From Alphaproteobacteria bacterium (GTDB lineage Bacteria; Pseudomonadota; Alphaproteobacteria; CBDDJK01), in the NCBI GenBank assembly GCA_965229675.1, contig OZ245897.1, positions 1,185,127 to 1,249,126 of the forward strand: DNA of 64,000 nt, in the 5' to 3' direction. The notes under the pieces are model-generated. The model had not been told where the DNA came from, ran no database searches, and was given only the letters and a program-made list of their open reading frames with translations. Below are positions 2,888 to 49,223 of this stretch, piece by piece. Made by a program: the position numbers and the translations under genes. Each line of letters starts with the position of its first letter. Position 1 is the first letter of the stretch.

Positions 2888-2898
2888 GGGTTTGTTTT

Positions 2899-4564: not shown

Positions 4565-4920
4565 GACACCAATCCCCCCCATTGAAACAAGACAAAACAA
4601 ATAAAGCCCGTTGCTAACCCAAGCACCACCGATTTTTTTGTTACATACCAGACCGCAAAAGACAGCATAACAATCATTGCGCGGATTAACATGGCTTCAA
4701 AATCTATTGCCGTATCCATCTGGTTACTCGGCATGATTAGCACCCGAATAAGTAAAGCGGCCACCATCGCATAGGCAACGGCTGAAATCCATTGAAACAA
4801 ACGACTTTGTTCATCAATTCGTCCACAAATTGCCGCCCCGATCATCCGCCAACTTGTGGTGCCGATGATGGCCGCGAGTAAATAACTCCATAAAAGAATG
4901 GGATCAGAATGATCAATCAT
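4561..4920 (-). CDS. azlD: Branched-chain amino acid exporter small subunit AzlD
   Basis: Small hydrophobic protein directly downstream of AzlC with a 1-nt ATGA-type overlap, the typical azlCD operon layout. Confidence 0.6.
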   Translation of the reverse strand: MIDHSDPILLWSYLLAAIIGTTSWRMIGAAICGRIDEQSRLFQWISAVAYAMVAALLIRVLIMPSNQMDTAIDFEAMLIRAMIVMLSFAVWYVTKKSVVLGLATGFICFVLFQWGGLVS

Positions 4921-5657
4921 TAATTTTTACCTAAATTTGAAGCGAAAAACGCAATGGTTCCCCCACCAACCCCTGCAACAAAAATTGACCAATTGCCAAT
5001 GAACGGATAAAGGCCAAGCCCGCCAATAATACCAATTAAAACAGCAATCATATTCATCTTTTGACGTGGGTTAAGGATAAGCAACATCAAATAAAGTGGG
5101 GTAATAAATACGATGGCACCAACGATGGGTTCAGGCAAAACGCCACCTGAAAAATATCCTAACATTGTGCCACTTATGCCAGCGAAAAATAGCAAGGAAA
5201 CAAAGCCAATATAATAAGGCAATAGGAACATGCGCGGGATATAATCACGCACCAGCATAATCGCCGTCCATCCCGTTACCGCAAGAAAATGTGATAGGAT
5301 GAAGCGTACCAACCAGCTCAAGCGGCGTTCCCCCATAATCACTGTAATTCCAGTAACCGTGATGGGAAGCAAGCGCATATTAGCAAAGGATACCGCCAAT
5401 AAAGAGAACAAAAATCCAACTTTCAGGGATGCCATTTCATTCATGGCAACTTGTCCTGGCAAAGCCCAGATTAAGACCGCACCATTAAACGCAAACCACC
5501 AAGGAAGCCCCAATTCATGGGCCATTGCCCCAAACCCAGTCATTGATGCACCGATTCCAAGGGCAGGCACTCCAAAGCAATGCCCCATTCCAGCAATGAA
5601 CGCAGCCTTGTTATCGGCAATTTGGCTTAGCCGATTCAAAAAACGTTCAGAAGTCAT
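4920..5657 (-). CDS. azlC: Branched-chain amino acid exporter AzlC family
   Basis: 245 aa polytopic membrane protein with AzlC-family composition and N-terminal region, paired with azlD. Confidence 0.65.
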   Translation of the reverse strand: MTSERFLNRLSQIADNKAAFIAGMGHCFGVPALGIGASMTGFGAMAHELGLPWWFAFNGAVLIWALPGQVAMNEMASLKVGFLFSLLAVSFANMRLLPITVTGITVIMGERRLSWLVRFILSHFLAVTGWTAIMLVRDYIPRMFLLPYYIGFVSLLFFAGISGTMLGYFSGGVLPEPIVGAIVFITPLYLMLLILNPRQKMNMIAVLIGIIGGLGLYPFIGNWSIFVAGVGGGTIAFFASNLGKN

Positions 5658-5690
5658 GGGTTACAGTTAAAAGGGTTTGCTTAATCTGTT

Positions 5691-7640
5691 TTAAGACGCT
5701 GTTTCAAGGGGGCGTGTCATGAAGGCACTTAGCCGCTTTGCAAATGCCTGTGAATCAACAGGTGGCTCCCCATCAATAATCCGTGCTTGGTCATGTAGCA
5801 TCAAAACAATATCACGTGCTTGATCTTGCTGATCTGTAACCAAGGAAGTTAAATGAAGAATCAAAGGATGATTAGGATTAATTTCCATCTGTTTTAAACT
5901 TTGCTGATCAAGCTGTTTATGTTGCTTTAGCAAGCGTTCCAAATGTAAATCAGGTCCAAACTCACTTGCAACCAAACAAGCAGGCGATTCCGTTAAGCGG
6001 GTTGATAATTTAACATCACTGATATGTTCTTTTAGTTCAGTTTTCATAAAATCAAGCACCGCCTTTTGTTCATCACTTATTTCGGATTTTTTAGCTTCGC
6101 TTTTCTGTTCCTCTTTTGTTGAATCGATTTGATCGGTTTTCGTATCCTGTTCCATATCATCCAAATCCGCACCAGCACGTGTTACTGATTGCAGTTTGAT
6201 GCCATCATATTCGCCAACATAACCGACCCAAAATTCATCAACTGGATCTGTGAATAGTAAAACATCAATAGATTTTGCTTTAAACCCTTCAAGATGCGGA
6301 CTTGCCATAAGGCTGGCTTCATCCTCGCCACTGATATAATAAATTGCTTTTTGCCCCTTGACCATTGCTTCTTTATAAGCTTCCAATGATAGCCATTTGG
6401 ACTTATCGGATTGTATTGATTTAAACCGCACAAGATTTAGCAAACGCGCTTTATCTTCGGCAAAATCGCAAAGCCCTTCTTTCACAACAACCCCAAATTT
6501 TTCCCAAAATTGGTTAAAGCCTTCTTCATCTTCCTTGGCGCGTTTGGTCAAAAGATCAAGCACACGCCCAACCAGATTCTTACTGATTTTACTAATCACA
6601 GGGTTATTTTGTAACATCTCGCGCGAAACGTTTAGCGGTAAATCTTCAGAATCAACAACCCCGCGCATAAACCGCAACCAAGAGGGCAGTAATTGTTCGC
6701 ATTGATCGGTAATAAAAACTCGTTTTACATAAAGCTTAACCCGATTCAAACGCTCTGGATTAAACAGGTCAAACGGACGCTCGCTTGGAATATATAAAAG
6801 GGCTGAATATTCCAACATGCCTTCGGCGCGAAAATGGATATTGCCCCAAGGCTCGTCAAAGCCATGTGAAACATGACGATAAAATTCTTTATGCTGTTCT
6901 TCATCCATCTTTGAAGGAGCTAATGTCCAAGGCGCAGCACCACGATTAATTTGTTCATTTTCATCACCTTCTTCCCCGTCACTGATATGAAGACGGATAG
7001 GAAAGGCAATATGGTTAGAATAGGTGGTTACAATATGCTTGATGCGTTCTGCTTCAAAAAATTCGCTAGCATCTTCCTTAAGTTTCAAACGAATGATCGT
7101 GCCATGATCAGGGCCTTGTTTTTCAGGTGAGACTTTAAAGCCTGTTTTACCATCGCTTTGCCATTGATTAGACTTGCCTTCCCCCGCTTTGGTGGAAATA
7201 ACAGTCACTTCATCTGCAACCATGAAAGAGGCATAAAATCCAACCCCAAATTGACCAATTAAATTGATATCCTTTTTAGCATCACCGCTAACCCCAGCCA
7301 TAAATTCGCGTGTACCAGAGCGTGCAATCGTCCCAAGATTTTCTGTCAATTCCTTAGCACTCATGCCAATGCCGTTATCTTCAACGGTTAAAATACCTGC
7401 TTCTTTATCAACATGCAGAGTAATTCCTAATTCTTGACCATCCTTAATCAATTCGGGTTTAGAAATTGCCTGATAGCGCAAACGGTCACAAGCATCAGCA
7501 GCATTAGAGATTAATTCACGCAGAAAAATCTCGCGTTCAGAATAAAGCGCATGCGTTACAATATCCAGCAACCTTCCAACTTCAGCCTGAAATTCTTGGC
7601 TATGTTCTGTTTGTTTTTTCTGTGCCTTTTTTGCCATCAT
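5691..7640 (-). CDS. htpG: Molecular chaperone HtpG (Hsp90)
   Basis: 649 aa with the GHKL ATPase N-domain motifs LRELISNAADA and GQFGVGFYS and the charged linker of Hsp90. Confidence 0.95.
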   Translation of the reverse strand: MMAKKAQKKQTEHSQEFQAEVGRLLDIVTHALYSEREIFLRELISNAADACDRLRYQAISKPELIKDGQELGITLHVDKEAGILTVEDNGIGMSAKELTENLGTIARSGTREFMAGVSGDAKKDINLIGQFGVGFYASFMVADEVTVISTKAGEGKSNQWQSDGKTGFKVSPEKQGPDHGTIIRLKLKEDASEFFEAERIKHIVTTYSNHIAFPIRLHISDGEEGDENEQINRGAAPWTLAPSKMDEEQHKEFYRHVSHGFDEPWGNIHFRAEGMLEYSALLYIPSERPFDLFNPERLNRVKLYVKRVFITDQCEQLLPSWLRFMRGVVDSEDLPLNVSREMLQNNPVISKISKNLVGRVLDLLTKRAKEDEEGFNQFWEKFGVVVKEGLCDFAEDKARLLNLVRFKSIQSDKSKWLSLEAYKEAMVKGQKAIYYISGEDEASLMASPHLEGFKAKSIDVLLFTDPVDEFWVGYVGEYDGIKLQSVTRAGADLDDMEQDTKTDQIDSTKEEQKSEAKKSEISDEQKAVLDFMKTELKEHISDVKLSTRLTESPACLVASEFGPDLHLERLLKQHKQLDQQSLKQMEINPNHPLILHLTSLVTDQQDQARDIVLMLHDQARIIDGEPPVDSQAFAKRLSAFMTRPLETAS

Positions 7641-7681
7641 GACCCTCTTTTTAAAATTATGTTAATTGCAATCTGTTACCG

Positions 7682-7710
7682 ATATAGGATTGAAATAATA
7701 GGTTTCAAGG
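7682..7710 (-). promoter_or_regulatory. RpoH (sigma-32) type heat-shock promoter upstream of htpG
   Basis: Minus strand reads CCCCTTGAAA-N14-CCTATAT, about 40 nt upstream of the htpG ATG. This fits the alphaproteobacterial RpoH consensus CTTG-N17-CYTATNT and the E. coli CCCTTGAA −35 box. Confidence 0.5.
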
Positions 7711-9009
7711 GGCGGTTTTACTTACAGGGAGGGTGACCTCAATGACGTGTTCGGGTTCAAAAATTAGTTTTAAGTCAACGCGCTCGCCTTCCTCAATAGG
7801 ACGCTGCAATTCCATCAACATAATATGTGCCTTATGCGGGTGAAGATCAACTATTTGTCCACCATCAATGGCAATCCCATCTTTAAGTTCACGCATTTTC
7901 ATAATTTGATTTTCCATGACTGTTTCATGAAGCTTAGTTTTTTTAACAAAATCAGCCCTAACTTCAATTAAGCGGGCTGGACTGCTTCCTTTATTTTCAA
8001 TTGTAATATAGGCTGCGGCCATTGAACCTGCTGGCTGGCGTACCCAACCATCTTTGACCGTTAATTCTGTTTTTGCAAATACGGACTGACCGATCACTGC
8101 TAAATAGCCAATAAACACAACCAGCATAATAAAACCAGCCCATCTTGGCAGTTGGCCTTTTTTAAACCATAACACCGCCCCAACAAATAAGGTGGCGGCG
8201 ATCATCCACGGCACATCACGATGAAGGAATTGTGCATCCATCTCAAGAACACCGAACAGGCTTGCAACCCCAGGGATTGCAAGGGAGTTAAAGCCATTTG
8301 ATCCCAAAATATTTGCAATTGCCATATCGCTTTGTCTTTTCAAAATTGCTGAAAGGGTTGCGACTAATTCTGGAAGGCTGGTGCCAAATGCGACTAAGGT
8401 TAGCCCTATAATCCCTTCTGATACGCCAACGGCTCTTGCTAATTCTGCACCATAAAGAACGACCATATGCGCCCCTCCAAGTAAGCCGACAAGACCAATG
8501 ATCGCAAAGAGGACGCTGATCAAAAGTGTGGAGGGGGCTTCTGTGTCCTTCTCATCCTCACCATCTTGATCAAAACGTAACGCATAAAAGAAATAGCCAA
8601 TTAAACCAGCAAGCATGATCCCTCCTGCCCATGGGTTTAAGGCGCCTAAATAAACAAAACCAGCAAGCACAAAGGTTGATACTACCATCAAACCATTGTC
8701 ACGCATCACAGAATGAACTGCCCCTGATAAAGGCATAATTGCTGCGCCAAGGCCCAGAACCAGTAACAGGTTCATAATGTTACTGCCGATGATATTGCCA
8801 ACAGCGATGGCATCTTTGCCGCCAATATTTGCCTCAACCCCAATAAATAATTCTGGCGCAGAGGTACCAAATCCCATCACCACCAAACCGATTAAAGCAG
8901 GCGATACACCAAGGCGATTGGCAAGCCCTAAGCCGCCGCGCACCAATATATCACCGCCGCCAATTAATAAAATCAACCCCAAAATTGTTAAGAAAATTGT
9001 TAATAGCAT
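7705..9009 (-). CDS. CaCA-family Na+/Ca2+ exchanger (YrbG-like) fused at the C-terminus to a PCu(A)C copper-chaperone domain
   Basis: Residues 1 to about 320 carry two alpha-repeats (GTSAPELFIGV and GTSLPELVATL) across roughly 10 TM segments. Residues from about 325 onward match the PCu(A)C/DUF461 pattern: V.DGWVRQP…AAYITIENKG, then the H(M)x10M and HxM copper motifs (HETVMENQIMKM, HPHKAHIMLM). The ORF is continuous with no internal stop. Confidence 0.7.
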   Translation of the reverse strand: MLLTIFLTILGLILLIGGGDILVRGGLGLANRLGVSPALIGLVVMGFGTSAPELFIGVEANIGGKDAIAVGNIIGSNIMNLLLVLGLGAAIMPLSGAVHSVMRDNGLMVVSTFVLAGFVYLGALNPWAGGIMLAGLIGYFFYALRFDQDGEDEKDTEAPSTLLISVLFAIIGLVGLLGGAHMVVLYGAELARAVGVSEGIIGLTLVAFGTSLPELVATLSAILKRQSDMAIANILGSNGFNSLAIPGVASLFGVLEMDAQFLHRDVPWMIAATLFVGAVLWFKKGQLPRWAGFIMLVVFIGYLAVIGQSVFAKTELTVKDGWVRQPAGSMAAAYITIENKGSSPARLIEVRADFVKKTKLHETVMENQIMKMRELKDGIAIDGGQIVDLHPHKAHIMLMELQRPIEEGERVDLKLIFEPEHVIEVTLPVSKTAP

Positions 9010-9010
9010 G

Positions 9011-10231
9011 TTACACCTCGTCTAATGCATGTTCCAGATCAGCGATTAAATCGCCAACCGCTTCAAGACCCGTTGAAAAGCGAAGTAGCCCATCAACAAT
9101 TCCTTGTTTCTTTTTTTTCTGATCGGATAATTTACTATGCGTTGTCGTTGCAGGATGCGTCATTAGGCTTTTTGCATCACCAAAATTATTTGAAATATCA
9201 ATCAAATTCAGGCGATTCAGCACATTAAACGCATCTTGCTGATTGCCATCCTTCAAAATAAAGCTAATCACTGTGCCAAAATTGGTCATTTGTTGCTTAG
9301 CTAAACCATATTCGGGGTGACTGGCAAGCCCTGGATAGCATACAGATTGGATTTTAGGATGCTGTTCAAGAAATTCCGCGATGGTTTTTGCCGAATGGCT
9401 CATTGCATCAATGCGAAGCTTCAAAGTCTCCAATCCTTTTTCTAAGATCCAGCCATTAAAAGGGCTAAGGCCAGGTCCTGTATGGCGGATAAATGGTCGC
9501 AAATAATCTTCAATAAAGTCATTGCTTGAAATAACCACGCCGCCAAGGCAACGCCCTTGTCCATCAATATGTTTTGTGGATGAATAGGTTATAATATCTG
9601 CACCAAGCGATAATCCAGCCTGCGTACCAGGCCCTGCCATCCCACCATCCAGCACAACCCATGCGCCATGATTATGGGCAATTTTACTAATTTTGCGAAT
9701 ATCCAACACATGCAACATTGGATTAGTTGGGCTTTCAAAAAAAGCAAGTTTGGCACCAGATTTTTTGAACGCAGTTTCCCATTGGCTAAGGTCTCTTCCA
9801 TCAACAAAAATAGTTTCAATGCCAAAACGCGGTAGAATTTCTGATAAAATATAGGTGCAGGAATAAAATAATTGGTTTGCCGCAACTAATTTATCGCCTG
9901 ACTTTAAACAGCTTGCTAAAACTGCAAAGATTGCTGACATGCCTGTTGCCGTGGCGATACAGGCATCCCCGCCTTCAAGCACAGCCATTTTTCGTTCAAA
10001 CACGGAAAGGATTGGATTGGCATAGCGTGAATAAATGTAATTATCGGTTTCTCCACGAAAGGCTGCCGCCGCCTCTTCCGCACTGTCATAAACAAAGCCT
10101 GAGTTCATAAAGATGGGTTCATTGGTCTCTTTATAGTGGGTGCGTTTATAACCACCACGAACAAGATAGCTTTGAGGTTGCCAATTTTTTCTATTCATTG
10201 GTCGGCCTTTGCCATCCATTGACAAGCCCAA
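9011..10231 (-). CDS. metZ: O-succinylhomoserine sulfhydrylase (PLP-dependent, Cys/Met metabolism family)
   Basis: 406 aa Cys/Met-metabolism PLP enzyme (SSTKHIDGQG with the lysine, FSTGLEAVGDLIADL C-terminus). The likely true start is MNRKNWQ at about 10198. Confidence 0.8.
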   Translation of the reverse strand: MGLSMDGKGRPMNRKNWQPQSYLVRGGYKRTHYKETNEPIFMNSGFVYDSAEEAAAAFRGETDNYIYSRYANPILSVFERKMAVLEGGDACIATATGMSAIFAVLASCLKSGDKLVAANQLFYSCTYILSEILPRFGIETIFVDGRDLSQWETAFKKSGAKLAFFESPTNPMLHVLDIRKISKIAHNHGAWVVLDGGMAGPGTQAGLSLGADIITYSSTKHIDGQGRCLGGVVISSNDFIEDYLRPFIRHTGPGLSPFNGWILEKGLETLKLRIDAMSHSAKTIAEFLEQHPKIQSVCYPGLASHPEYGLAKQQMTNFGTVISFILKDGNQQDAFNVLNRLNLIDISNNFGDAKSLMTHPATTTHSKLSDQKKKKQGIVDGLLRFSTGLEAVGDLIADLEHALDEV

Positions 10232-11423
10232 CGGATAACCATAAACCCATCACACCCCAGCTTGAAAATAAGCTACTTGTTGAAATAACAGGCCATAATT
10301 CAGCCAAAAGCAGCGCAAATGCCCCAATAAATTGACAATCTTGACGCCAATCCCGCCAATTTTGTATGCTTTTTGCGAATAAGAAATAAATCATTGCTAA
10401 AAATAAGCAAAGACCGATCAGGCCATTTTCAACCCATAGCTCCAAATAAATATTATGTGGATGGGTCAGACATGGCTCCGTTGCATAATCAGGTTTTTGA
10501 CAATAAAGGCGATAATGCTTTGTGCCGATTCCAAAAATCCAATGATCTTTGGCAATTAATAATGTGTTTTGATAAACATTACCGTAATCAGAGGCTTTAA
10601 AATCAGCAAGTTTTGCAACTGTATTTTGAATTTGACGATTTTTAACTGCATCATCATTGATAAAAATTGCCCCTAACACCACCGCATGAATTGCAAGGAT
10701 TGAAAGAATAATCATACGATAACGCATTTCAAACAAAAGGATTATAACAAACAAGCCAAATCCTGATAATAATAATGGGCTACGCTCTCCGCTAACAACA
10801 ACGCCAATAAAAGGGATCAGCATCACTGCCACAAGCAATAAACGGATTAGATTAGTGCGTGTTTTAAAAAAATAAGCGGTTGCCCAGCCAAACGATAAGA
10901 GTGCAAATGGATAAAGAACATTGCCAAAAATGGGTGAATTAAACCATGCGGTTAGGCGGATTGAACTGTGAGGCAGGCTTCCAAATAAATCTTGCCCGAA
11001 ACCATATTGAATTAAACCGTCTATGGCTAAAATCATTCCTGAAAGCACTAACACAGGGTAAAACCAGCGTTCAACCAAAGGGTTTTTTATCAACCAATGG
11101 CTAATCGCCATGGCAAATAAACCATAACGGATGAAAGGTAATGCGCGTTCCAAACCAAATAAGGGCTGTTCTGCAAATAAACAGCGGATGATCATCCACC
11201 CCCATAATCCCAAAAATGCTAAAAACCATTTTTGCTTAACCCATGCAAAATCTTTTTGAAGCGAACTATGGATTAGAAACAAAAACCCAATAAGGGATAA
11301 GGTTACATCGGCAGGGGCGCGCCCAACCGCCATCATTGCTGGAAATAGGACAAACAAACCAACAGCGACCTGATTAAGCCGCTTTAAAAGCAAAGAAGTA
11401 TTAGCAGTTATAGCGAAATTCAC
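10191..11423 (-). CDS. O-antigen ligase / Wzy_C-family polytopic membrane protein
   Basis: About 12 TM segments with the periplasmic-loop motif H..HN.YLE..VENGLIG (THPHNIYLELWVENGLIGL) typical of the WaaL/O-antigen polymerase family. Confidence 0.6.
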   Translation of the reverse strand: MNFAITANTSLLLKRLNQVAVGLFVLFPAMMAVGRAPADVTLSLIGFLFLIHSSLQKDFAWVKQKWFLAFLGLWGWMIIRCLFAEQPLFGLERALPFIRYGLFAMAISHWLIKNPLVERWFYPVLVLSGMILAIDGLIQYGFGQDLFGSLPHSSIRLTAWFNSPIFGNVLYPFALLSFGWATAYFFKTRTNLIRLLLVAVMLIPFIGVVVSGERSPLLLSGFGLFVIILLFEMRYRMIILSILAIHAVVLGAIFINDDAVKNRQIQNTVAKLADFKASDYGNVYQNTLLIAKDHWIFGIGTKHYRLYCQKPDYATEPCLTHPHNIYLELWVENGLIGLCLFLAMIYFLFAKSIQNWRDWRQDCQFIGAFALLLAELWPVISTSSLFSSWGVMGLWLSVGLVNGWQRPTNE

Positions 11424-11942
11424 TTAATCAAATTCAGGGCGTGCCAAGGGCGGGCGTGGCCATGCCAAAACAGCATCTTTAATCACTTCAAACCACAAGG
11501 TCATTTGCGCTTGATCAATTTCTTCCACTGGTTTTATAAATGCTTCATCTATTAGATTCAAATGACTGCGAATCAATTCTGCTTGTAAATTAAACCATGG
11601 AGCTGGCACCCGATCAAATGCAATTGCTTTTTTACCTGGTTCTAGCGAAGCCCATTTAATCTCACTGCCATGTAGGGTAGGAGGCGGTAAGGCTTTACTT
11701 TCCATTCGTTCCACCGATTGCAAGATAAAATCATGCATCGCATCACGAAAAGCAGTATATTGTGGCTTGATTAATTCTTCCCATTCGGGTTGTTCTTGTG
11801 CGCGTTTGTGAAGGGTTTTACTGATCACTTCAAGGCGTAAATATTCTGCTAAATCCACCTGTTCTTCTGCATTAGTGGTGTCATTCACAAAAGATAATAG
11901 CAACATTACAGCTATTAACTTATAAAATTTAATCTTTATCAT
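11424..11942 (-). CDS. Hypothetical exported protein with an N-terminal signal peptide
   Basis: 172 aa starting MIKIKFYKLIAVMLLLSFVNDTTNA. Its ATG overlaps the TGA of the hydrolase gene fragment (ATGA). The first 8 codons are duplicated at 14718-14741. Confidence 0.5.
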   Translation of the reverse strand: MIKIKFYKLIAVMLLLSFVNDTTNAEEQVDLAEYLRLEVISKTLHKRAQEQPEWEELIKPQYTAFRDAMHDFILQSVERMESKALPPPTLHGSEIKWASLEPGKKAIAFDRVPAPWFNLQAELIRSHLNLIDEAFIKPVEEIDQAQMTLWFEVIKDAVLAWPRPPLARPEFD

Positions 11943-12275
11943 GGTATTTCATTTCCTAAAAAATCAATGATTGGCTTAATTTGATCCTCGTAAAACAAAG
12001 AAGGCGCATGCCCACAACCATCCAATGCTAAATAGCGCACTTTATACCCTGTCTCAACCATTTTACATGCTGTTTCATTCGATAATAAATCTGATTCGAT
12101 CCCACGAATCAACAAGATAGGCATGGTTGCATGTTTCCAAAATGGCCATAGATCAAGATCACTTTTCGCTAAATCTTTAAAATTATCTGAAAGTGCAGGA
12201 TCATAACTGCGAACATAACCGCCATCAGGATGTGGTTTAAGGCTAATCTCAGCTATAAATTTCCAGTCTTCATCG
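11920..12275. repeat. Copy 1 of a 356-bp direct repeat (about 95% identical to 14719-15074)
   Basis: Aligned by eye, the two copies sit at a constant offset of 2799 bp from 11920/14719 to 12275/15074 with a handful of mismatches, then diverge. Confidence 0.85.
11939..12275 (-). pseudogene. 3' fragment of the alpha/beta-hydrolase gene (truncated duplicate of 14738-15074)
   Basis: The 61-aa ORF MPILLIRGIESDLLSNETACKMVETGYKVRYLALDGCGHAPSLFYEDQIKPIIDFLGNEIP is nearly identical to the C-terminus of the 296-aa hydrolase at 14738-15628. DNA identity extends over about 356 bp. Confidence 0.85.
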
Positions 12276-12376
12276 ACAGCACATACGCACCAAGAATATC
12301 TGATTTGTCGGCATCTTAGACGAAAAGATCAATAATTTTAATGGACTCTTTTATAATAATTCTAAATTTTATCGCA

Positions 12377-14118
12377 TTAAAACTTAAAGTCAATTTGTAA
12401 CTTAGCGGTGTTATGTGCTTCGCTATCATTAAAACTAGGATTATGGGTAAGGTCAACTGCACCCATTAGCCTATCATTCAAACTATTAAATTTTAATCCC
12501 ATGCCAAAGATTTGTCCACTTGTATCGGTGAAATTCGATTTCAAATAAGGACTGGCGATGCCGATATTTTGCTGATTATTAGCATTGACATTGAAGCCAT
12601 AGGCAATAAGACCAGACAGATTATATTCACTATAATCATTGCGTCCAACAACACCAGATGATTCTAATGTTCCAGACCATCCAATATCATCGGATGCAAT
12701 AAGCACGCCACCGCCAATATTGAACGCCCCACTATCGCCATTGGTTTTATCGGTGAAATCATGCAAATAATCTGTTTTGAAAAATGGCTGAATGGTAGCA
12801 TCACCCGATGTCGTGCGATAGGAAATTTCAATCCCCGGTCTCAGTTGTCTAGTATTACTGGTTTCGCTATCGACCACTGTTCCATCACTTTCGCTATAGC
12901 CATCATTTTTCTTGCGGGCGAATAAAAAACCAAGGCGTGGTTTTAATTCTAATCCCTGATTAGCTAAAGGCGTAAATTTACCTTCGGCCAGAATATCAGC
13001 GAACCAGTTTATAGAGTTTGTGTTACTGGTCACCGTTTCATTATCGCGGTTTTGATTAATAGAACCATGAGCATAACCTGCCATGGCAGTAATGGATAAA
13101 TCAGGTCGCACACGATAAAGTGCATAGGGTGTTATTGACTTGCTTGTTTCGTCATAATCACCATCGTTAAAATTGGTGGTAAGGTTGGTTTCGCTATACC
13201 CTACGCTTACGCCAGCGGTTAGGCGATCATTATAACGATAATCCCCACCTAAATTATAGCCCCAAACATCACCAGAATAAGCCCCATCAGCACTATCATT
13301 ATCAACATTTGACTGATTGGCCTGCCCCCAAATTGTGAAACGGCGATTATCCAGCTCTAGTCTTTGTTGATCTGGCATACCAGTGGTATCCCCATCTGTG
13401 GACAAAATTAAATCATTGCTGTTAAATGATAATTTATTAAATAATTCACGCAAATCGCCTTGACGATAGGTAAGTTCATCATTTGCCGACAAGGAAGTTG
13501 CAAAACCTGTATTTTGTGTGGTTAACGCACCAATACCAGCAGACAAATTACTTAAATGGCTTTGCACATTATTGACCGTCACATTGGTCTGTGAACGCGA
13601 AATAGACGCAAACATATTGGTTCGTGAAGATATATAATGGGCAGAATCACCCGGAACACTACATGTTGCCGAAACGCTGTAAGAAAAATTCAAATTATTA
13701 AGGGCACTGATCATAAAACTGCTGCCCTCTTTCTCAATTGTATATGAATATGCTTGACTATCTTTTCGGTTCAATGTGAGGACTGCTATCTCATCTCCAT
13801 CATTTATAAAATCATTTGTATCTGTATAATAAATAGCTACATCAACCGAAGCTGCGCTCGAACTGTCATCTCTGGGACGCTCTACTGTAAACGTAATCCT
13901 CTCCCCGACAAACAACCCCCGATCATTATAAAAAACACGCAGATAATAATACTGACCATCAAAACCATTTTCAATAAAATCAGGTTCAGAAGTGAAGTTA
14001 GCACACCCCTCCGATATGGCCCAAGCGGGATTAGGTAGGGAAGTTACCCCCCCCCGCAAATCAGGGCGGTTAACGCCAATTTGGCAAAATTTTTCTTCAA
14101 ATGGTTAAAGCTAAGCAC
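12377..14118 (-). CDS. Autotransporter (type Va) outer-membrane protein whose signal-peptide coding region is interrupted by a +1 frameshift in a G9 homopolymer (candidate phase-variable gene, currently OFF)
   Basis: The C-terminal ~280 aa form an autotransporter beta-barrel ending KLQIDFKF with a terminal aromatic residue. The annotated frame 12377-14059 has no signal peptide. A second frame starts at GTG 14118 with a GAGG ribosome-binding site 7 nt upstream and encodes MLSFNHLKKNFAKLALTALICGGG before hitting TAA directly after the G9 tract (plus-strand C run 14047-14055). A G10 or G7 tract would fuse this signal peptide in frame to …VTSLPNPAWA|ISEG (AxA cleavage site). Confidence 0.7.
14047..14055 (-). 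repeat. Homopolymeric G9 tract (C9 on plus strand), a slipped-strand mispairing site within the autotransporter 5' coding region
   Basis: Nine consecutive C residues on the plus strand. Frame analysis shows the tract separates the signal-peptide frame from the mature-protein frame. Confidence 0.8.
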
Positions 14119-14158
14119 CCAAAAACCTCAATTTTAAATTATATTCACAAAGCGCAAA

Positions 14159-14731
14159 ATGCAGGCTATGATCAAGAAGTCAAGAAAAAATCATTTAACT
14201 AAGGTATTGATGATCATGTTCTACGATTCCTATATCAATCCATTGAATAACGCAATTATCTTTATTGTTCAACTGATAAATAATTGCCCAGTCTATATGT
14301 CTGCTGATAGGTCTTTGCAAAATAGCAAGCGCACTATTGTTATGGTGGAGTCGAATAAACTTCTGGAATTATGGCGAAACGATCCACTTACGCGTCATGC
14401 TGAAATTGCTTACGGAAATCCTGAAAGCTGGTGTAAAGATTATAAATATCATAATGCAGAACAAGGATTTTTAGCGGGCAAAGACAATCCCGTTCCGCTT
14501 GCCGAAATTTCCTATCAGGAATTATCCGAAGCCTATCACAAAAAGAGAGTGACAAGCAGGTTGTTTCAACAAAACCCAAAGAAAATATCTTGTATTTCCT
14601 TTACCAATGGCATTACAAGAACAATCTGGCTTTTATCAAATGGTGCAAGCCATTTTCCTGTTGAATTATATGATTTTAGTGAAGCCGAAAAATTGGCTAA
14701 CATTATGCAAACAGAAATTTATAAAATTTAA
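14159..14731 (+). CDS. Hypothetical protein with a C-terminal ParB/sulfiredoxin-like motif
   Basis: 190 aa, transcribed divergently from the autotransporter. The C-terminal region ISFTNGITRTIWLLSNGASHFPVEL resembles the ParB/Srx-fold signature (DGxHRxxAhxxxGxxxhPV). The last 12 nt overlap the start of repeat copy 2. The exact start is uncertain. Confidence 0.4.
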   Translation: MQAMIKKSRKNHLTKVLMIMFYDSYINPLNNAIIFIVQLINNCPVYMSADRSLQNSKRTIVMVESNKLLELWRNDPLTRHAEIAYGNPESWCKDYKYHNAEQGFLAGKDNPVPLAEISYQELSEAYHKKRVTSRLFQQNPKKISCISFTNGITRTIWLLSNGASHFPVELYDFSEAEKLANIMQTEIYKI

Positions 14732-15074
14732 TCTTTATCATGGTATTTCATTTCCTACAAAATCAATGATTGGCTTAATTTGATCCTCGTAAAACAAAGA
14801 AGGCGCATGCCCACAACCATCTAATGTTAAATAGCGCACTTTATACCCTGTCTCAACCATTTTACATGCTGTTTCATTCGATAATAAATCAGATTCGATT
14901 CCACGAAGCAACAATACAGGCATGGTTGCGTGCGCCCAAAATGGCCATAGATCAAGATCACTTTTCGCTAAATCTTTAAAATTATCTGAAAGTGCAGGAT
15001 CATAACTGCGAACATAACCGCCATTAGGATGCGGTCTAAGGCTAATCTCAGCCATAAATTGCCAATCTTCATCG
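14719..15074. repeat. Copy 2 of the 356-bp direct repeat (the 3' end of the intact hydrolase gene plus the first 8 codons of the downstream exported-protein gene)
   Basis: See copy 1. It contains the intact hydrolase stop and the ATGA junction. Confidence 0.85.
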
Positions 15075-15628
15075 CCGCGAATGCCAAATGGTTGATAAAT
15101 CTCCCGAATATGGGCGATAGCTTCATCATAATTTTTGAAATGCCATGGAATTGCACAATATTCAGCAATGCGTTTTAACGCATTCTGTTCCAAAAAAGGC
15201 CCAACATCATTCAAAACCAAGCGGCGAATTGACCAATCTTGTTCGCTTTCACCTGCCGTCATACAATGCGCCAAGGCAATCAACCCACCCATTGAGGTGC
15301 CAACCCAATCAATCTCTCCTGCAAGAACGCCAGCATGGCGTAACATAAGTTGAATATCCGATAAATATTGCGGAATCGCATAATCTGCTGAATTTGTTAA
15401 AATATCACTTCTTAGCCTACCTGCCATATCAGGGCATAGGACGCGAATATCTTTATCGACAATTAACTGTTGCGCCAAACGATCAAAATCACGGCCATTG
15501 CGGGTAAGCCCATGAACGCAAACAATAATATGCTTTGCCTCAATCGCTCCCCAATCGGAATAAACCAGTCGATGCACTCCCTTTGAATCAGGGCATTCAA
15601 CAACGCCTTCACGAAAAATTGGGGGCAT
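14738..15628 (-). CDS. Alpha/beta-hydrolase fold protein
   Basis: 296 aa with the HG oxyanion region (VCVHGLTRNGRDF) and a GTSMGG nucleophile elbow (GxSxG). The start overlaps the stop of the upstream binding-protein gene by 1 nt. Confidence 0.75.
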   Translation of the reverse strand: MPPIFREGVVECPDSKGVHRLVYSDWGAIEAKHIIVCVHGLTRNGRDFDRLAQQLIVDKDIRVLCPDMAGRLRSDILTNSADYAIPQYLSDIQLMLRHAGVLAGEIDWVGTSMGGLIALAHCMTAGESEQDWSIRRLVLNDVGPFLEQNALKRIAEYCAIPWHFKNYDEAIAHIREIYQPFGIRGDEDWQFMAEISLRPHPNGGYVRSYDPALSDNFKDLAKSDLDLWPFWAHATMPVLLLRGIESDLLSNETACKMVETGYKVRYLTLDGCGHAPSLFYEDQIKPIIDFVGNEIP

Positions 15629-17418
15629 TATGGTTTAATCCACCAGCTGGTAAAATCAGCCCCCATGCGTGAAAATCGTTCAGGAAAACCAATGCGTGAT
15701 GACCAAGCCAATCGTTCGGTATCTGCATAATAATGCGGGATCATCAAAAAGCTCCATTGCAAAATTCGGTCAAGCGCACGCACATGGGTAATAAGGGATT
15801 CACGGCTATCCGCCACGATTAATTGTTCAATCAACTGATCAATTGCTGGATTTTGAATCCCCATAACATTACGCCCACCCTTAATTGTTGCACTTTGCGC
15901 CCCCCAATATTCACGCTGTTCGTTCCCAGGTGAATTGCTTTGGGCGATGCCATGGACGATCATGTCAAAATCATGGTTCCGAAGCCGTTCAATATATTGT
16001 GCGCTATCGACTATCCTTAAATTAATTGCCCCGCCTAATCGTTCAACCCCACGCACCAAGGCTTGGCTATGAGGAACAAGGCTGTCTGAAGATAGCATGA
16101 GTTCAAACTCCAATAGCTTACCTGTTTCTTGATGGGTTAGTTTGCCGTCTTGAACAATCCAACCAGCCTCCTTTAACAGCATCGCGGCTTTTCGCAGATT
16201 ATTACGATCCAGCCCACTGCCATCTGATACAGGTGGGCTATAAGCTTCGGTAAAGACCCGCTCTGGTAGGCTATCACGCAATGGTTCAAGCAAAGCTAAT
16301 TCTTCAGGACTTGGTAAACCTTCTGCCGCCAATTCTGAATTATCAAAATAGCTATCAATGCGTTTATAAGCTTCATACATTAAATTACGATTAACCCATT
16401 CAAAATCCCATACATAGCTTAACGCTTCGCGCACACGGACATCTTTGAATATGTCGCGGCGTAAATTAAACGCAAAACCTTGCATTTGTGCAACGCGTTC
16501 ATGGGTAAATTCATCGCGTTGAATGTCGCCGCGCTTCACCGCCTCAACTTCAAATGCAGTTGCCCATTCTTTGGCACTATTTTCACGCCAAATATCCAAT
16601 TTTCCTGCTTTGAATGCTTCGCGTGAGATGGTGCGATCCCGATAATAATCATAACGGACAATATCAAAATTATAAAATCCACGATTAACGGGTAAATCTT
16701 TTCCCCAATAGTCCTTTACCCGCTCATATTCTATATATTTGCCTGCTTCAAACCGCTTTATACGATAAGGGCCAGAAGAAACATAGGGGGTAAGGGTGGT
16801 TTTGGTAAAATCACGCCCCTGCCAATCCTGTTTGGAAAGAATCGATAATTGTCCAAGAATCATCGCCATTTCAGGATTGGGACGATTTAAAGAAAATCGA
16901 ACAATATGGCTGGTTTCAGCCTCCACCATGCTAACATCACCATAATAAAAACGATAAAGCGGTGCGCCTTGTTCAACAAGCATATTGAATGTCCATACAA
17001 TATCTTCGGCAAGGATTGGGTTGCCATCATGGAAACGTGCTTCATCACGCAATTTAAACCGAATGGTTTTTTGATCCTTGCTAATATCAACCCATTCAGC
17101 TAAATTGCCATAGCTTCCTGATGGTTCATCACGATTAGCCACCAATAAATTATCAAAAATAAGCCCCAATCCTGTTGCCGCATCACCTTTAATAATAAAG
17201 GGATTTAGGTTATCGAATGATCCAATCGCCTCCAGTCTTACCGTGCCGCCCTTTGGTGCATCTGGATTAACATAAGGGAAATGGGTGAAATCTGGGGGCA
17301 ATTCGGGTTTGCCATGGGTTGCAATGCTAAATGAAGGGTCGGCGAAACTTGGATGCATGATTGTTTGCAACAAACCCACCATGATAAAAATGATTATGGA
17401 AACTCTGCTGATTAACAT
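15628..17418 (-). CDS. ABC-transporter substrate-binding protein, family 5 (oligopeptide/YejA-like)
   Basis: 596 aa with a signal peptide (MLISRVSIIIFIMVGLLQTIMHPSFA) and SBP_bac_5 composition and length. No permease or ATPase genes are adjacent. Confidence 0.7.
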   Translation of the reverse strand: MLISRVSIIIFIMVGLLQTIMHPSFADPSFSIATHGKPELPPDFTHFPYVNPDAPKGGTVRLEAIGSFDNLNPFIIKGDAATGLGLIFDNLLVANRDEPSGSYGNLAEWVDISKDQKTIRFKLRDEARFHDGNPILAEDIVWTFNMLVEQGAPLYRFYYGDVSMVEAETSHIVRFSLNRPNPEMAMILGQLSILSKQDWQGRDFTKTTLTPYVSSGPYRIKRFEAGKYIEYERVKDYWGKDLPVNRGFYNFDIVRYDYYRDRTISREAFKAGKLDIWRENSAKEWATAFEVEAVKRGDIQRDEFTHERVAQMQGFAFNLRRDIFKDVRVREALSYVWDFEWVNRNLMYEAYKRIDSYFDNSELAAEGLPSPEELALLEPLRDSLPERVFTEAYSPPVSDGSGLDRNNLRKAAMLLKEAGWIVQDGKLTHQETGKLLEFELMLSSDSLVPHSQALVRGVERLGGAINLRIVDSAQYIERLRNHDFDMIVHGIAQSNSPGNEQREYWGAQSATIKGGRNVMGIQNPAIDQLIEQLIVADSRESLITHVRALDRILQWSFLMIPHYYADTERLAWSSRIGFPERFSRMGADFTSWWIKP

Positions 17419-17486
17419 GATATGCCTCTTTTATCTGCATTCGCCAGATTAGATTTATGTTTCTTTAAAAGCTGGCGATAGGCGGC

Positions 17487-17560
17487 TGGAGCGGGTGAAG
17501 GGAATCGAACCCTCGTATTCAGCTTGGGAAGCTGATGTTCTACCATTGAACTACACCCGC
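17487..17560 (-). tRNA. tRNA-Gly (anticodon CCC)
   Basis: Reverse complement reads GCGGGTGTAGTTCAATGGTAGAACATCAGCTTCCCAAGCTGAATACGAGGGTTCGATTCCCTTCACCCGCTCCA. It has a 7-bp acceptor stem, a D-loop AGTTCAATGGTAGA, the anticodon loop CTTCCCAAG (anticodon CCC), the T-loop GGTTCGATTCC, discriminator U and an encoded CCA. Confidence 0.9.
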
Positions 17561-17632
17561 AATTGATCTATGATTTTTATCAATTTATAAATTCTCAACT
17601 CTTGTAACCGATCAATCACGCTTAGGCAAGCC

Positions 17633-18535
17633 ATGGACTTAGACAAAAAACAAATGCTTACTGCTTATCTGTTGCTTGTGGGTGCAACCTTAATGTGGAG
17701 TGCCCATGCGATTGTTGGCAAGTTAGCTGTTGGTACCTTATCCCCCCTAACCTTGGTCACATTGCGTTGGGCGTTTGTTGCACCGTTCGTTACGCTGATT
17801 ACTTGGCATAAGCTTAAACAACATAAATCGCTGATTCCTTCTATCATTCCATTCGCGCTTGGTATGGGTACCGTTGGCTTCACCAGCTTTAACGGACTTT
17901 TTTATATGGCAGCCCATACGACCAGCGCAATCAATATTGGTATTACGCAAGGTTCAGTTCCTGTATTTGTCTTGATTATCAGTCGTTTATTGTTCAAACA
18001 TCCGCTTCATGCCGCTTCGGTCATTGGAATTTTAATCACGCTTGGTGGGGTTATTCTGGTTGCAAGTGGTGGGTCGTGGGAACAGCTTAGCACCTTTAAT
18101 ATTGCGCTTGGCGATGGGCTTATGATCCTAGCCTGTCTTTGCTATGCGCTTTATACCAATGGATTATTTAAACGCCCTGCAATGGACGGTTTAACCTTTT
18201 TTGGCATTGCGGCATGGGGCGGATTAATCAGTTCCCTCCCGTTTATGGCTTATGAAGCGGCAACCAACCAAATGTTGCTTCCTGACAGCCAATCAGATTG
18301 GTTTTTACTTGGCTTTATTGCATTAATGCCATCTTTTCTTGCACAATTTTTCTTCTTAAAAGGTGTGGATGCACTTGGCCCTTCGCGTGCTGGAATTTTT
18401 TTAAACCTTGTCCCTATTTTCGCGGCGATTATGGCTGTAACCTTTTTAAATGAAGCCTTATACACCTATCACATTATTGCATTAATCTTGGTAATGGGTG
18501 GAATTTATCTGGCTGAATATCGCCATCATCGCTAG
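17633..18535 (+). CDS. DMT-superfamily transporter (EamA/RhaT family)
   Basis: 300 aa with 10 predicted TM helices in two EamA-type halves. Confidence 0.7.
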   Translation: MDLDKKQMLTAYLLLVGATLMWSAHAIVGKLAVGTLSPLTLVTLRWAFVAPFVTLITWHKLKQHKSLIPSIIPFALGMGTVGFTSFNGLFYMAAHTTSAINIGITQGSVPVFVLIISRLLFKHPLHAASVIGILITLGGVILVASGGSWEQLSTFNIALGDGLMILACLCYALYTNGLFKRPAMDGLTFFGIAAWGGLISSLPFMAYEAATNQMLLPDSQSDWFLLGFIALMPSFLAQFFFLKGVDALGPSRAGIFLNLVPIFAAIMAVTFLNEALYTYHIIALILVMGGIYLAEYRHHR

Positions 18536-18547
18536 AAAGATATAAAT

Positions 18548-19285
18548 CTAATAATCCGCTTTGATAAAATAAAGTCCATGCGCAGGGGCGGTGGCACCAG
18601 CCGCAATGCGTGATTTTGCTTCTAACATGGTTTGAATGGCATCGGGGAGATGCTTGTGGTGACCGATTTCAGCCAAGGTGCCAACCATATTACGCACCTG
18701 ATGATGAAGGAAGGAGCGCGCAGAAAACCCAAAAATTATCTGTTCGCCTTGCTGTTCAAGCGTTACCGCATCCAATGTTTTCATTGGTGATTTTGCCTGA
18801 CAATGTGATGCACGAAAGCTCGTAAAATCATGGTGGCCAAGCAAATATTGTGATGCTTTGCGCATTGCCTCAAGATCCAAAGGCCGCATAATATGCCACA
18901 CCCGATTAGCGTGTAGCACCGATGATGCAGGGCGATTTAATATGCGATAACAATAATGTCGCTTAATCGCCGAAAAACGCGCATGAAACTGTTCGGTTAC
19001 TTTTATAACCTCAACAACACGCACAGGCATATCAAGTAACCAAGCATTAAGGGCACCAAAAATTTCTTGTTCTGTGGTCGGACGCTTAACATCAACATGA
19101 ACCGACATTGCCAAGGCATGCACGCCTGCATCGGTGCGCCCAGCAGCAAATAATTGAACTTCTTCTTGACAAAATCGATGGATAGCCTGTTCTAATAAGG
19201 CTTGGACGCTGGTTCCCTCTTTTTGTTTTTGCCAGCCAACCAGCCCCGTTCCATCATATTCAATGCGTAGGTGCCAGCGTTGCAT
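18548..19285 (-). CDS. truA: tRNA pseudouridine(38-40) synthase TruA
   Basis: 245 aa starting MQRWHLRIEYDGTGLVGWQKQ with the catalytic Asp motif (AAGRTDAGVHA). Confidence 0.9.
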   Translation of the reverse strand: MQRWHLRIEYDGTGLVGWQKQKEGTSVQALLEQAIHRFCQEEVQLFAAGRTDAGVHALAMSVHVDVKRPTTEQEIFGALNAWLLDMPVRVVEVIKVTEQFHARFSAIKRHYCYRILNRPASSVLHANRVWHIMRPLDLEAMRKASQYLLGHHDFTSFRASHCQAKSPMKTLDAVTLEQQGEQIIFGFSARSFLHHQVRNMVGTLAEIGHHKHLPDAIQTMLEAKSRIAAGATAPAHGLYFIKADY

Positions 19286-20225
19286 TCGCCCCTACTGCAT
19301 CCATGGGTTTCGTCCCAATTTCATTTAAATTAAATGGAACAGTTTGATAAATTTGATTAATCCAATTTGCAAAAAATAAATGCGCATGGCTGCGCCATAC
19401 ATTAGGCGGGTTGTGTGATGGGTTGTCTTGTGGAAAATAACCATAAGGAAGATCAATCGCCTTTTGTTCGGCAATATCCCGTTCATATTCCCCCTTCAAG
19501 GTTAAATGATCATATTCAAGATGGTTGAACATACAAATATGATTGATCGCCTTAGCTTCAACCAAACAAAGCCCCGTCAAGTCAGAATCAATCAATAATT
19601 CTAATTCTGAATGCATGATAATATCTTCTTTATTGGTTTGTGTATGGCGCGATACAGGGATTCGTAATTCATCTGAAAACCCACGTAATAAAGGATTCTC
19701 ACGATGGTAGGTTTTATGCGGAAACACCCCAAACGCTTTTTTTGTCAAAGGATGCTTTGGGATTTGATAAAAATGATAAAGGGCGGCTTGTGCGCCCCAG
19801 CAAATATCCAGCGTACTATGGACATTGGTTTGCGTCCAATCAAAAATATCGCAAAGTTCTTGCCAATATTTTACAGCTTCAAAAGGCATAGTTTCAACGG
19901 GCGCACCCGTAATAATCATCCCGTCAAATTTCTTATCTTTAATTTGCGACCAAGGTTTATAATAACTGTTTAAATGATGGGAAGAGACGTTTCCAGGCAC
20001 ATAGCTTTCCGTCATGATTAATGTTAATTCAATCTGCAACGGAGTTGCGCCAATCAATCGTGCCAATTGCAACTCAGTCATTTCTTTAAGCGGCATTAAA
20101 TTAAGTAATGCAATTTGTAATGGGCGAATATCCTGACGGATTGCAACATGCTCGTGCATTACAAACAGCCCTTCTTTGGTTAATTGCTCCCCAACGGGCA
20201 GGTTATCTGGAATTTTAATCGGCAT
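19260..20225 (-). CDS. metA: Homoserine O-acyltransferase (MetA family: O-succinyl or O-acetyl)
   Basis: 321 aa starting MPIKIPDNLP…ALLNLMP, matching MetA-family N-terminal and core motifs. Confidence 0.85.
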   Translation of the reverse strand: MPIKIPDNLPVGEQLTKEGLFVMHEHVAIRQDIRPLQIALLNLMPLKEMTELQLARLIGATPLQIELTLIMTESYVPGNVSSHHLNSYYKPWSQIKDKKFDGMIITGAPVETMPFEAVKYWQELCDIFDWTQTNVHSTLDICWGAQAALYHFYQIPKHPLTKKAFGVFPHKTYHRENPLLRGFSDELRIPVSRHTQTNKEDIIMHSELELLIDSDLTGLCLVEAKAINHICMFNHLEYDHLTLKGEYERDIAEQKAIDLPYGYFPQDNPSHNPPNVWRSHAHLFFANWINQIYQTVPFNLNEIGTKPMDAVGANATLAPTH

Positions 20226-20234
20226 GGCTTGGTT

Positions 20235-20894
20235 TTATGGCATTCTGCGTGACAATTCAAGCTGATTAAACTGTCTTATAAAGGTTTGCTTAATGGTTTC
20301 ATTGGGCTGATCAAACGCGATAATTTTCGGTTCAAATAAATCAATTAAGGCTTGAGGCGGATATTTCCAAATTGTGCGAACCTCTTTTGCTTCAAAACCT
20401 GCAATCGTTAAGGCTTCCAGTGCTGCTGCATAAAGATCAGCGCGTTTAACTTGTTTTTTCAAAGCTTCAGAAAGGGTGGGTGGCAATGAAAATCGTCGAT
20501 GTATGGCTTCCAACAAGTGGTCTTCAAGCTGCGTGTAAGCAATCCCAACCGCCGCTTTGAACGGAGAAATCAAATCACCAATCACATATTCAGGCGCATC
20601 ATGTAATAGGGCAACCATCCTATATTCGGTTGAAGCTTTAGGATTTAGATGGCTAAAAATAGCTTCCACCAGCAGGCTATGCGCTGCAACTGAAAAACAA
20701 TGCGCTCCCTTTGTTTGCCCATTCCAGCGGGACATTCGGGACAATCCATGCGCAATATCTTCAAGTTCAATATCAATTGAAGCGGGATTAAGAAGGTCAA
20801 GTCGCCGACCGCTTAACATTCTTTGCCAAGCCCGCATAGGTTTAGGGGGTTTAGTTGGAGGAAAAGCTGAAGATTTTAAGGTAGGTTTGACCAT
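20235..20894 (-). CDS. HD-domain phosphohydrolase (YfbR-like 5'-deoxynucleotidase family)
   Basis: 219 aa with the HD motif region HSLLVEAI…ALLHDAPEYVIGDLISPFK. Confidence 0.65.
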   Translation of the reverse strand: MVKPTLKSSAFPPTKPPKPMRAWQRMLSGRRLDLLNPASIDIELEDIAHGLSRMSRWNGQTKGAHCFSVAAHSLLVEAIFSHLNPKASTEYRMVALLHDAPEYVIGDLISPFKAAVGIAYTQLEDHLLEAIHRRFSLPPTLSEALKKQVKRADLYAAALEALTIAGFEAKEVRTIWKYPPQALIDLFEPKIIAFDQPNETIKQTFIRQFNQLELSRRMP

Positions 20895-21800: not shown

Positions 21801-21815
21801 ATCATTGATCCTTCT

Positions 21816-49007: not shown

Positions 49008-49223
49008 CTGTGGGTACGCAAGATTGCCTACCATTTTCGTAAAAAGTTGCTCTATTTAATTGAATCATTCTGGTTGTATGCAAAAAGAAGGCTGGCTAAA
49101 TTTAATGGATTAACGGATGAAAAATTCTATCTCCACCTCAAAGAATGCGAATGGAGATTTAATAATAGACAAGGAAATGTTTATAAGATATTGTTAAACG
49201 AATTTAGAAAAAATCCACTCTAA
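49008..49223 (+). mobile_element. 3' remnant of an IS1595-family (ISXO2-like) transposase gene
   Basis: About 70 aa (…IESFWLYAKRRLAKFNGLTDEKFYLHLKECEWRFNNRQGNVYKILL…) matching the conserved C-terminal tail of IS1595 transposases (…EGFWSLLKR…HLPLYLAEFCFRYNNRK…). It begins immediately after the glmS stop, and the DDE core is absent. Confidence 0.55.

Follow-up and report, generated by a model that had tools for sequence, protein, structure and literature searches.

The DNA considered here is a stretch of 64,000 nt from an Alphaproteobacteria bacterium (GTDB lineage CBDDJK01; assembly GCA_965229675.1, contig OZ245897.1, positions 1,185,127-1,249,126 of the forward strand), referred to below as the window. 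In it, a small islet of genes separates an alpha/beta-hydrolase gene from the gene for an exported protein of 172 amino acids (the 172-aa gene), and the islet is bracketed by two direct repeats, copies A and B, that duplicate the junction of these two genes. Our preferred reading, to which we assign a probability of roughly 0.6, is that a foreign unit of 2.8 kb was integrated at the two-gene junction by homologous recombination, through the Campbell-type loop-in of a circle. It is favored by the end points of the repeats, by the empty site in relatives, by the pairing of one intact with one truncated hydrolase gene, and by the frequency of imports of 1-2.7 kb at 4-9% divergence between this genome and a near-identical relative.

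Direct repeats and the empty site

A base-by-base comparison of the two repeat copies gave 356 bp of direct repeat with 18 mismatches and no gaps (94.9% identity), and a repeat tool placed their starts 2799 bp apart. When three further bases are included (AAC at 11917-11919 against AAT at 14716-14718), the match reported by BLAST grows to 359 bp with 19 mismatches (E = 1.8e-163). Similarity breaks off sharply at both ends, the two copies share identical start and end points, and the longest identical runs between them measure 89, 63, 63, and 39 nt. Read on the minus strand, each copy runs from the last 112 codons of the hydrolase gene and its stop codon through the ATGA overlap into the 172-aa gene, of which it holds the 8 initial codons. 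Copy B belongs to the complete hydrolase gene. In copy A the 112 codons continue without a stop or frameshift, the 5' 184 codons are missing, and no start codon precedes M51. The left-hand junction between repeat and unique DNA falls 101 bp downstream of the autotransporter stop codon. The preliminary description of this stretch, made from the sequence alone, had reported direct repeats of about 95% identity at this offset, the same gene content within them, and unique DNA in between with an autotransporter gene and a divergent 190-aa open reading frame (ORF); all of this was confirmed, the autotransporter by its match to PF03797. The coordinates of these features are collected in Table 1.

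Table 1. Coordinates in the window of the repeats, the inserted DNA, and the genes at and within the islet.
Feature	Position	Strand	Remarks
Intact 172-aa exported-protein gene	11424..11942	-	ATG and the stop codon of the hydrolase fragment overlap as ATGA
Repeat copy A	11920..12275		Extends to 11917 if the mismatch at 11919 is allowed; xenologous
Hydrolase 3' fragment	11939..12275	-	112 codons and stop; open frame
Unique inserted DNA	12276..14718		2443 bp; absent from all relatives
Autotransporter ORF as assembled	12377..14059	-	560 aa; small beta-sandwich passenger, linker, PF03797 beta-barrel ending FKF
Autotransporter leader	14044..14129	-	N-terminal signal-peptide part, in the wrong frame
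G9 homopolymer of the coding strand (C9 on the + strand)	14047..14055	-	Inside the signal-peptide coding region
Osa/PFIN-family fertility-inhibition gene	14159..14731	+	190-aa ORF; likely start ATG at 14210
Remnant start of the 172-aa gene at copy B	14703..14741	-	MIKIKFYK, 4 codons antisense to the PFIN gene, stop
Repeat copy B	14719..15074		Resident copy, inside the intact hydrolase gene
Intact 296-aa alpha/beta-hydrolase gene	14738..15628	-	93% identical to homologue P0001

We compared the site with four related contigs. Three are close relatives (L001, L003, and L004), all from the ENA metagenome assembly ERZ25074195, and they supply the three full-length members from other contigs in the 90% identity cluster of the hydrolase. 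L001 and L003 are about 94-95% identical to the window, and L004 is colinear with it over 2303-22611 at about 98% identity. The fourth contig, L002, represents a distant relative (51% identical). In each close relative the gene order is SBP_bac_5, hydrolase, and 172-aa gene, the last two overlapping at ATGA, and in L001 and L004 the series continues with Wzy_C, Cys_Met_Meta_PP, and Na_Ca_ex genes. In L002, a gene resembling the 172-aa gene directly follows the hydrolase gene. An empty site with a single copy of the repeated segment and no insert was therefore present in all three close relatives and in L002. Because the hydrolase and 172-aa genes are contiguous in all four contigs, they were adjacent ancestrally, as the preliminary description had supposed, and its proposal that related genomes be searched for an empty site was answered with an outcome that favors insertion. 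The content of the site varies between conserved flanks among close relatives and involves no mobility genes. No alternative cassette was found at the site, the four relatives having only the empty state.

Wider searches added distant hydrolase relatives. A profile search of genome contigs with the hydrolase alignment returned relatives only at 48% identity or less (Hwanghaeella, Pacificispira, and Rhodospirillales metagenome-assembled genomes), and all of them lacked a homologue of the 172-aa gene and the cargo genes as well. A profile search of genome and metagenome contigs with the alignment of the 172-aa protein found no relative, and the protein had no match in Pfam or NCBIfam. The best named relatives of the source alphaproteobacterium belong to the Rhodospirillales.

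Origin of the repeat copies

The pattern of differences over the 356 bp bears directly on where each repeat copy came from. Copy A differs from copy B at 18 sites, from L004 at 19, from L003 at 20, and from L001 at 22; copy B and L004 are separated by 5 differences, and L001 and L003 by 10. At 9 sites copy A has the base of L001 and L003 where copy B and L004 share another, and at 10 sites it has the base of copy B and L004 where L001 and L003 share another. At each of the 19 sites that distinguish the two clades, copy A thus keeps the shared, ancestral state. Since sites of both classes are intermixed along the segment, copy A is no mosaic. Its private changes number 5-6, the shortest branch of the three, and they divide into 3 synonymous and 3 non-synonymous, a split that carries no statistical power. 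Copy A is of foreign origin, and the sequence comparison assigns it to a third, unsampled lineage near the common node of both clades, from which it would have arrived together with the cargo. By the same comparison copy B is identified as the resident orthologue of L004. One repeat copy from an incoming lineage beside one orthologous to L004 is the arrangement that Campbell-type integration predicts. Two other origins of the repeat were considered and rejected at this point: copy A is not an old, decaying pseudogene, its private branch being short, and the repeat is not a duplicated contig end, the copies differing by 5% (18 sites).

Copy B resembles L004 closely along most of its length. The 5 differences in the 356-bp segment are followed by none in the next 740 bp, and 3 of them (14731, 14745, and 14758) lie at the left end of the copy, after which 277 bases are identical. 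At 3 of the 5 sites copy B carries the base of copy A, a pattern that may reflect gene conversion between the copies or the repair of a heteroduplex.

The surroundings of the islet show how this genome and L004 are related. The window is identical to L004 over 2360-7083 (one mismatch), 9053-10392, 11442-11847, 15038-15778, and 18514-22308 (one mismatch). Between these stretches lie divergent blocks at 7083-9053 (about 4%), 10392-11442 (8.6%, in the O-antigen-ligase-like Wzy_C gene), 11847-12275 (7.7%), and 15778-18514 (4.7%). The two genomes share a near-identical clonal frame and differ by recombination imports of 1-2.7 kb. Judged by these blocks, homologous recombination in this population would be very frequent. 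Because the islet is absent from the near-identical L004, the insertion is very recent and postdates the split from that strain.

Two further features of this region concern recombination near the islet. The first is a second difference in gene content: the segment at about 154-2302 of the window, between recR and hisS, is absent in L004 and contains an aldehyde dehydrogenase gene (637-2169) and a DUF779 gene (172-555). Neither long flanking repeats nor a mobility gene accompany it, and its hisS flank is only 87% identical. The second is a patch of about 100 nt at 11847-11946 in which two alleles are discordant with the flanks, the window grouping with L003, and L001 with L004; L004 equals L001 across 11826-11968. 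The patch takes in the final hydrolase codons and the beginning of the 172-aa gene, which encodes the signal peptide and N-terminal region, and it abuts the repeat boundary. It is a small recombination hot patch and may be an import of L004's own.

The cargo genes

The insert carries two genes of different character. The 190-aa ORF is assigned by sequence similarity to the Osa/PFIN family of fertility-inhibition proteins, of the type found on plasmids and integrative and conjugative elements (ICEs). Its Pfam match is to PFIN, 'plasmid fertility inhibition factor' (PF22162; 2.5e-34; 118.7 bits against a cut-off of 27), and spans profile positions 1-116 of 118, and the PDB entries 4ovb and 4o7k, both named 'Protein osa', match at 7e-6. 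Homologues occur in 66 plasmid records at 30-38% identity; one, in a Paraburkholderia plasmid, has a coupling-protein gene beside it, and another lies inside ICEhin1056. Among 5.8 billion proteins, the closest homologue is only 47% identical. In the alignment, the C-terminus of the window protein is about 10-15 residues shorter than those of its homologues, and it is repeat copy B, antisense to the start of the 172-aa gene, that supplies the final four codons and the stop (IYKI*). Because the PFIN gene is cut at the right-hand junction, that junction is an illegitimate joint and not an attachment site.

Members of this family, namely Osa, FiwA, and ICE1056Fin, block rival conjugation systems by way of the coupling protein, and Osa-type genes have been described as fast-moving accessory genes (PMC5696584). 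The gene in the window resembles them in its above-threshold PFIN match and its match to the sequences of the Osa crystal structures. It differs in being chromosomal and outside any conjugative element, in its identity of 30-47%, and in the loss of its C-terminus. Inhibition of conjugation by the window protein is therefore a prediction drawn from its homology, the function being known for Osa, FiwA, and ICE1056Fin. A literature search by the names PFIN and PF22162 found no paper.

The second cargo gene encodes an autotransporter of the classical type (type Va), given the C-terminal translocator barrel that matches PF03797 at 1.3e-28 in Pfam. As assembled, the ORF does not begin with an in-frame N-terminal Sec signal peptide. 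Such a leader lies immediately upstream in another frame: GAGG (14129-14126), a spacer of 7 nt, a GTG start (14118-14116), 24 codons reading MLSFNHLKKNFAKLALTALICGGG, and a TAA stop (14046-14044). A run of nine G residues sits within the signal-peptide coding region, and a run of ten or seven would join the leader to the ORF, the product then reading ...CGGGVTSLPNPAWA followed by ISEGC. The signal peptides of the homologues P0247 and P0248 end in QAWA followed by VSS.C, which matches PAWA followed by ISEGC here. No other homopolymer in the 64 kb, whatever the base, reaches 9 nt; by chance, about 0.1 runs of 9 nt or more would be expected.

Genes for phase-variable outer-membrane proteins with homopolymeric tracts are known as contingency loci. 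The autotransporter gene is like them in that a homopolymer in the 5' coding region, within the signal-peptide part of an outer-membrane protein gene, sets the reading frame, and in that the gain of one G or the loss of two would restore it. It is unlike them in that only a single tract length, that of the assembly, has been observed. We therefore regard the gene, on the strength of its sequence, as a candidate phase-variable gene in the off state. The off-frame state may instead reflect a sequencing error in the homopolymer, or the gene may be dead, a fixed pseudogene. The preliminary description had called the cargo a surface-protein gene; this holds in that an autotransporter gene is present, but its signal peptide is out of frame and the second gene encodes an anti-conjugation factor.

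Homologues of the autotransporter were found in Thalassospira, Terasakiella, and unnamed alphaproteobacteria at 31-46% identity. The nearest is a paralogue, 67% identical, on L005, a low-coverage contig of the same metagenome. On plasmids there was one weak match, that is, essentially none. The L005 paralogue (3319-6303) lies between an MFS gene and ccmB and is truncated at its 5' end by IS3-type and IS1595-like fragments. Its similarity to the window gene begins only after the passenger and ends at the stop codon.

Composition gave a weak signal of foreign origin. The GC content of the insert is 38.7% against 42.7% for the window, and that of the PFIN gene is 35.1%, which is 3.7 SD below the mean of the window genes. 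The autotransporter and the codon-usage scores fall within about 1.4 SD, and the autotransporter is near-native in composition. The comparison of GC and codon usage with the flanks that the preliminary description had proposed thus came out in favor of foreign DNA as regards GC, especially for the PFIN gene, but not as regards the autotransporter or codon usage. Together, the plasmid-type PFIN gene, the lower GC, and the lack of anything alike in the relatives agree with its view that the DNA between the repeats is foreign.

The insert brought no mobility genes with it. Recombinase, transposase, and type IV secretion system domains were absent by Pfam from the insert and from the scanned window ORFs of at least 150 aa, with 2.3-10.2 kb covered through the Pfam labels of the syntenic genes in L001 and L004. 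A repeat tool with a minimum length of 30 found no inverted repeats of at least 30 nt at the insert ends. Short identical core repeats of an attachment (att) site are likewise not what was found, the repeats being 356 bp long with 18 mismatches. A transposon or insertion sequence (IS) with target duplication was rejected on these grounds: no transposase domain, no terminal inverted repeats of at least 30 nt, and a duplication of 356 bp. No second copy of the insert, the autotransporter gene, or the PFIN gene was found in the window or in L001-L004, and PADLOC and NCBIfam gave nothing useful on the cargo genes.

Mode of insertion and comparable systems

In the mechanism that we propose, the incoming unit would have consisted of a xenologous copy A (the hydrolase 3' end and 8 codons of the 172-aa gene), the autotransporter gene, and the Osa-like gene. 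The homology segment of the circle would have been joined to the cargo earlier by two illegitimate junctions, one cutting the 3' end of the Osa-like gene and the other lying just past the autotransporter stop. A single crossover between a circle bearing the 356-bp homology with the cargo and the chromosomal homology would then yield the order repeat, cargo, repeat, with no integrase or transposase involved. The repeat geometry, the empty site, and the foreign copy A all fit the Campbell-type integration that the preliminary description had suggested, whereas the circle, its route of entry, and any excision at the present day are what we infer.

The reading can take two forms. In one, the crossover would have taken place in this genome, with the exchange in the leftmost 40-100 bp of the repeat. 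Only one site, 11959/14758, fits a switch between donor and resident sequence near the left end, and the patch at 11847-11946 confuses its reading. In the other form, a finished repeat-cargo-repeat allele would have been imported from an unsampled donor lineage by crossovers in the flanks. Differences from L004 that carry on leftward beyond copy A for 73 bp (11847-11919) speak for such an import, as do the left-end differences of copy B with the long identical run after them and a resemblance to the other divergent blocks and to the second difference in gene content. Against an import taken alone stands the dimorphism of the patch, where L004 equals L001. Both forms fit the data.

Several points weigh against integration of a circle. 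The analysis turned up neither a circular form nor a donor genome nor a second integrated copy, and the nearest homologues of the PFIN gene and the autotransporter are only 47% and 67% identical. Reciprocal chimerism of the repeats is not clearly visible, copy A being donor-like and copy B resident-like over almost their full length. The 73 bp of dense differences from L004 to the left of copy A favor a longer donor tract over a crossover within the repeat; because the patch is dimorphic and L004 equals L001 there, this tract may be L004's own import, which tempers the point. The persistence and transfer of a 2.8-kb circle are unexplained, because it would have no replication gene. Finally, the structure and the length of the G run are taken from the assembly.

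Integration in this way would have done little harm to the genes at the site. The unit comes with a gene junction of its own, so that the resident hydrolase would stay whole and the insertion into an overlapping gene pair would be tolerated. Upstream of the 172-aa gene, 337 bp would still be of native type, with the ATGA overlap and the ribosome-binding region among them. Recombination between the repeats would, in turn, restore the empty site in frame and release a circle of 2799 bp. It is conceivable, if unlikely, that the islet makes regular use of this route as a self-propagating cassette without an integrase, leaving by RecA-dependent loop-out as the 2799-bp circle and re-entering by a crossover or through flanking homology. 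If so, the cassette would spread a phase-variable, adhesin-like autotransporter together with an Osa-like suppressor of rival conjugative elements while leaving the operon undamaged.

The rival that survives best is homology-facilitated illegitimate recombination, although we consider it rather improbable. Here a linear donor fragment would have been anchored by homology on the side of the 172-aa gene, and its non-homologous PFIN end would have joined the sister chromosome by microhomology at a replication fork, creating the duplication; the donor would never have held two copies of the segment. The donor-like tract, unbroken between about 11847 and the cargo with copy A included, is in keeping with this, as are the right-hand junction within the PFIN coding region and a possible microhomology of 2-3 nt (AAT or AA before TTATAAAA). 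It leaves the exact coincidence of both repeat boundaries to be accounted for, which a circle explains without extra assumptions. It also calls for the fork-bridging event, and so for more assumptions, and at 14731 and 14745 copy B has the bases of copy A and not those of L004.

A decayed site-specific element (a prophage, an ICE, or an integrative and mobilizable element) that later lost its integrase and most of its length by deletion is improbable. Elements of this kind, such as e14 and phage 21 at icd, integrate at the 3' end of a gene and bring a long, slightly divergent duplicate of that end. The islet shares with them a divergent 3'-end duplicate on the incoming element and a complete gene that remains, and one PFIN homologue lies inside ICEhin1056. 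Unlike the islet, e14 and phage 21 use an integrase and a core site, and it is the element's copy that becomes part of the functional gene. In the window it is the resident 3' end that belongs to the intact gene and the foreign copy that is displaced, the reverse of icd. Moreover, there is no recombinase in the insert or the scanned window ORFs, the insert measures only 2.4 kb, the sole tRNA gene lies 2.4 kb away, and the cut in the PFIN gene coincides exactly with the repeat boundary, something that an att site would not call for.

That the structure is an assembly or consensus artefact mixing co-occurring strains is highly improbable. In its favor, the metagenome from which all three close relatives derive contains several closely related strains. 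The repeat copies differ at 18 sites, however, both novel junctions are sharp, and one of them creates a continuous end to the PFIN ORF; copy A matches no sampled strain, and the whole structure spans only 3.2 kb.

Rejected as the least credible of all is the idea that the segment was duplicated in place and then diverged, or that an ancestral filled site was precisely lost in all relatives: direct repeats do flank the insert, and recombination between them would restore a clean empty site, but duplication in place would require nine exact reversions after the split from L004 (the 9 sites at which copy A shares the base of L001 and L003), the private branch of copy A (half of its changes synonymous) is the shortest of the three, and loss would have to have occurred independently two or three times, with no A-type sequence in the relatives and with L004 sharing an identical clonal frame with this genome. 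The duplication-mediated insertion that the preliminary description had offered as an alternative is refuted, as an in-place event, by these 9 sites among the 18 differences between the copies.

Integration of a circle by homologous recombination has counterparts among known systems. As in Campbell insertion-duplication, known from suicide vectors or plasmids that have a segment in common with the chromosome, the cargo lies between copies with identical ends, an intact gene stands beside a truncated one, and the segment occurs once in the empty site; such an event dispenses with a dedicated recombinase and can be undone when the repeats recombine. The islet differs in being natural, in that its homology, only 356 bp, comes from another lineage at 5% divergence, and in that the circle is not observed and the crossover point is poorly marked. 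Circular units of ISCR or IS type (ISVsa3/ISCR) enter by homologous recombination and leave a duplicated segment around their cargo (PMC8386438). In contrast to these, the shared segment in the window is an ordinary gene junction, and there is no transposase to make a circle.

Another comparison is with the minimal mobile elements that Saunders and Snyder described in Neisseria, sites whose gene content varies between conserved flanking genes through homologous recombination in the flanks, without mobility genes (PMC3787668). The islet is similar in varying in this way among very close relatives, in its divergent flanking tracts, and in the presence of a second such difference in the window. 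It is dissimilar in the long duplication of a flanking gene and in its having only filled and empty states, with no alternative cassettes.

As a gene gain through homologous recombination, the islet is clear-cut yet fairly ordinary, and it overturns no current understanding. It provides a natural example of gene gain without a mobility enzyme in which both translationally overlapping genes survive, and it represents a presence/absence polymorphism in a strongly recombining population. Should both cargo genes be active, the cell surface would be altered and plasmid traffic possibly limited. Its value lies in being a well-documented case and a testable system for RecA-driven loop-out and loop-in.

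The remainder of the window is ordinary chromosome, with genes for RadA, IleRS, GlmS, flagellin, IspH, and ParC. Promoter and terminator scans gave results at chance level. The only match of the Rfam and ARAGORN scans was a tRNA-Gly(CCC) gene at 17487-17560 on the minus strand, 2.4 kb from copy B and upstream of the SBP_bac_5 gene, and it is tied to neither junction of the islet. Farther along, at 49059-49163, a short translated stretch matches the C-terminal end of an IS1595-like transposase. Beside it (49226-52124), codon usage is atypical in genes that include a Sel1-repeat gene (49226-49936) and an Ldh_2 gene (51111-52124), and this may be another acquired segment.

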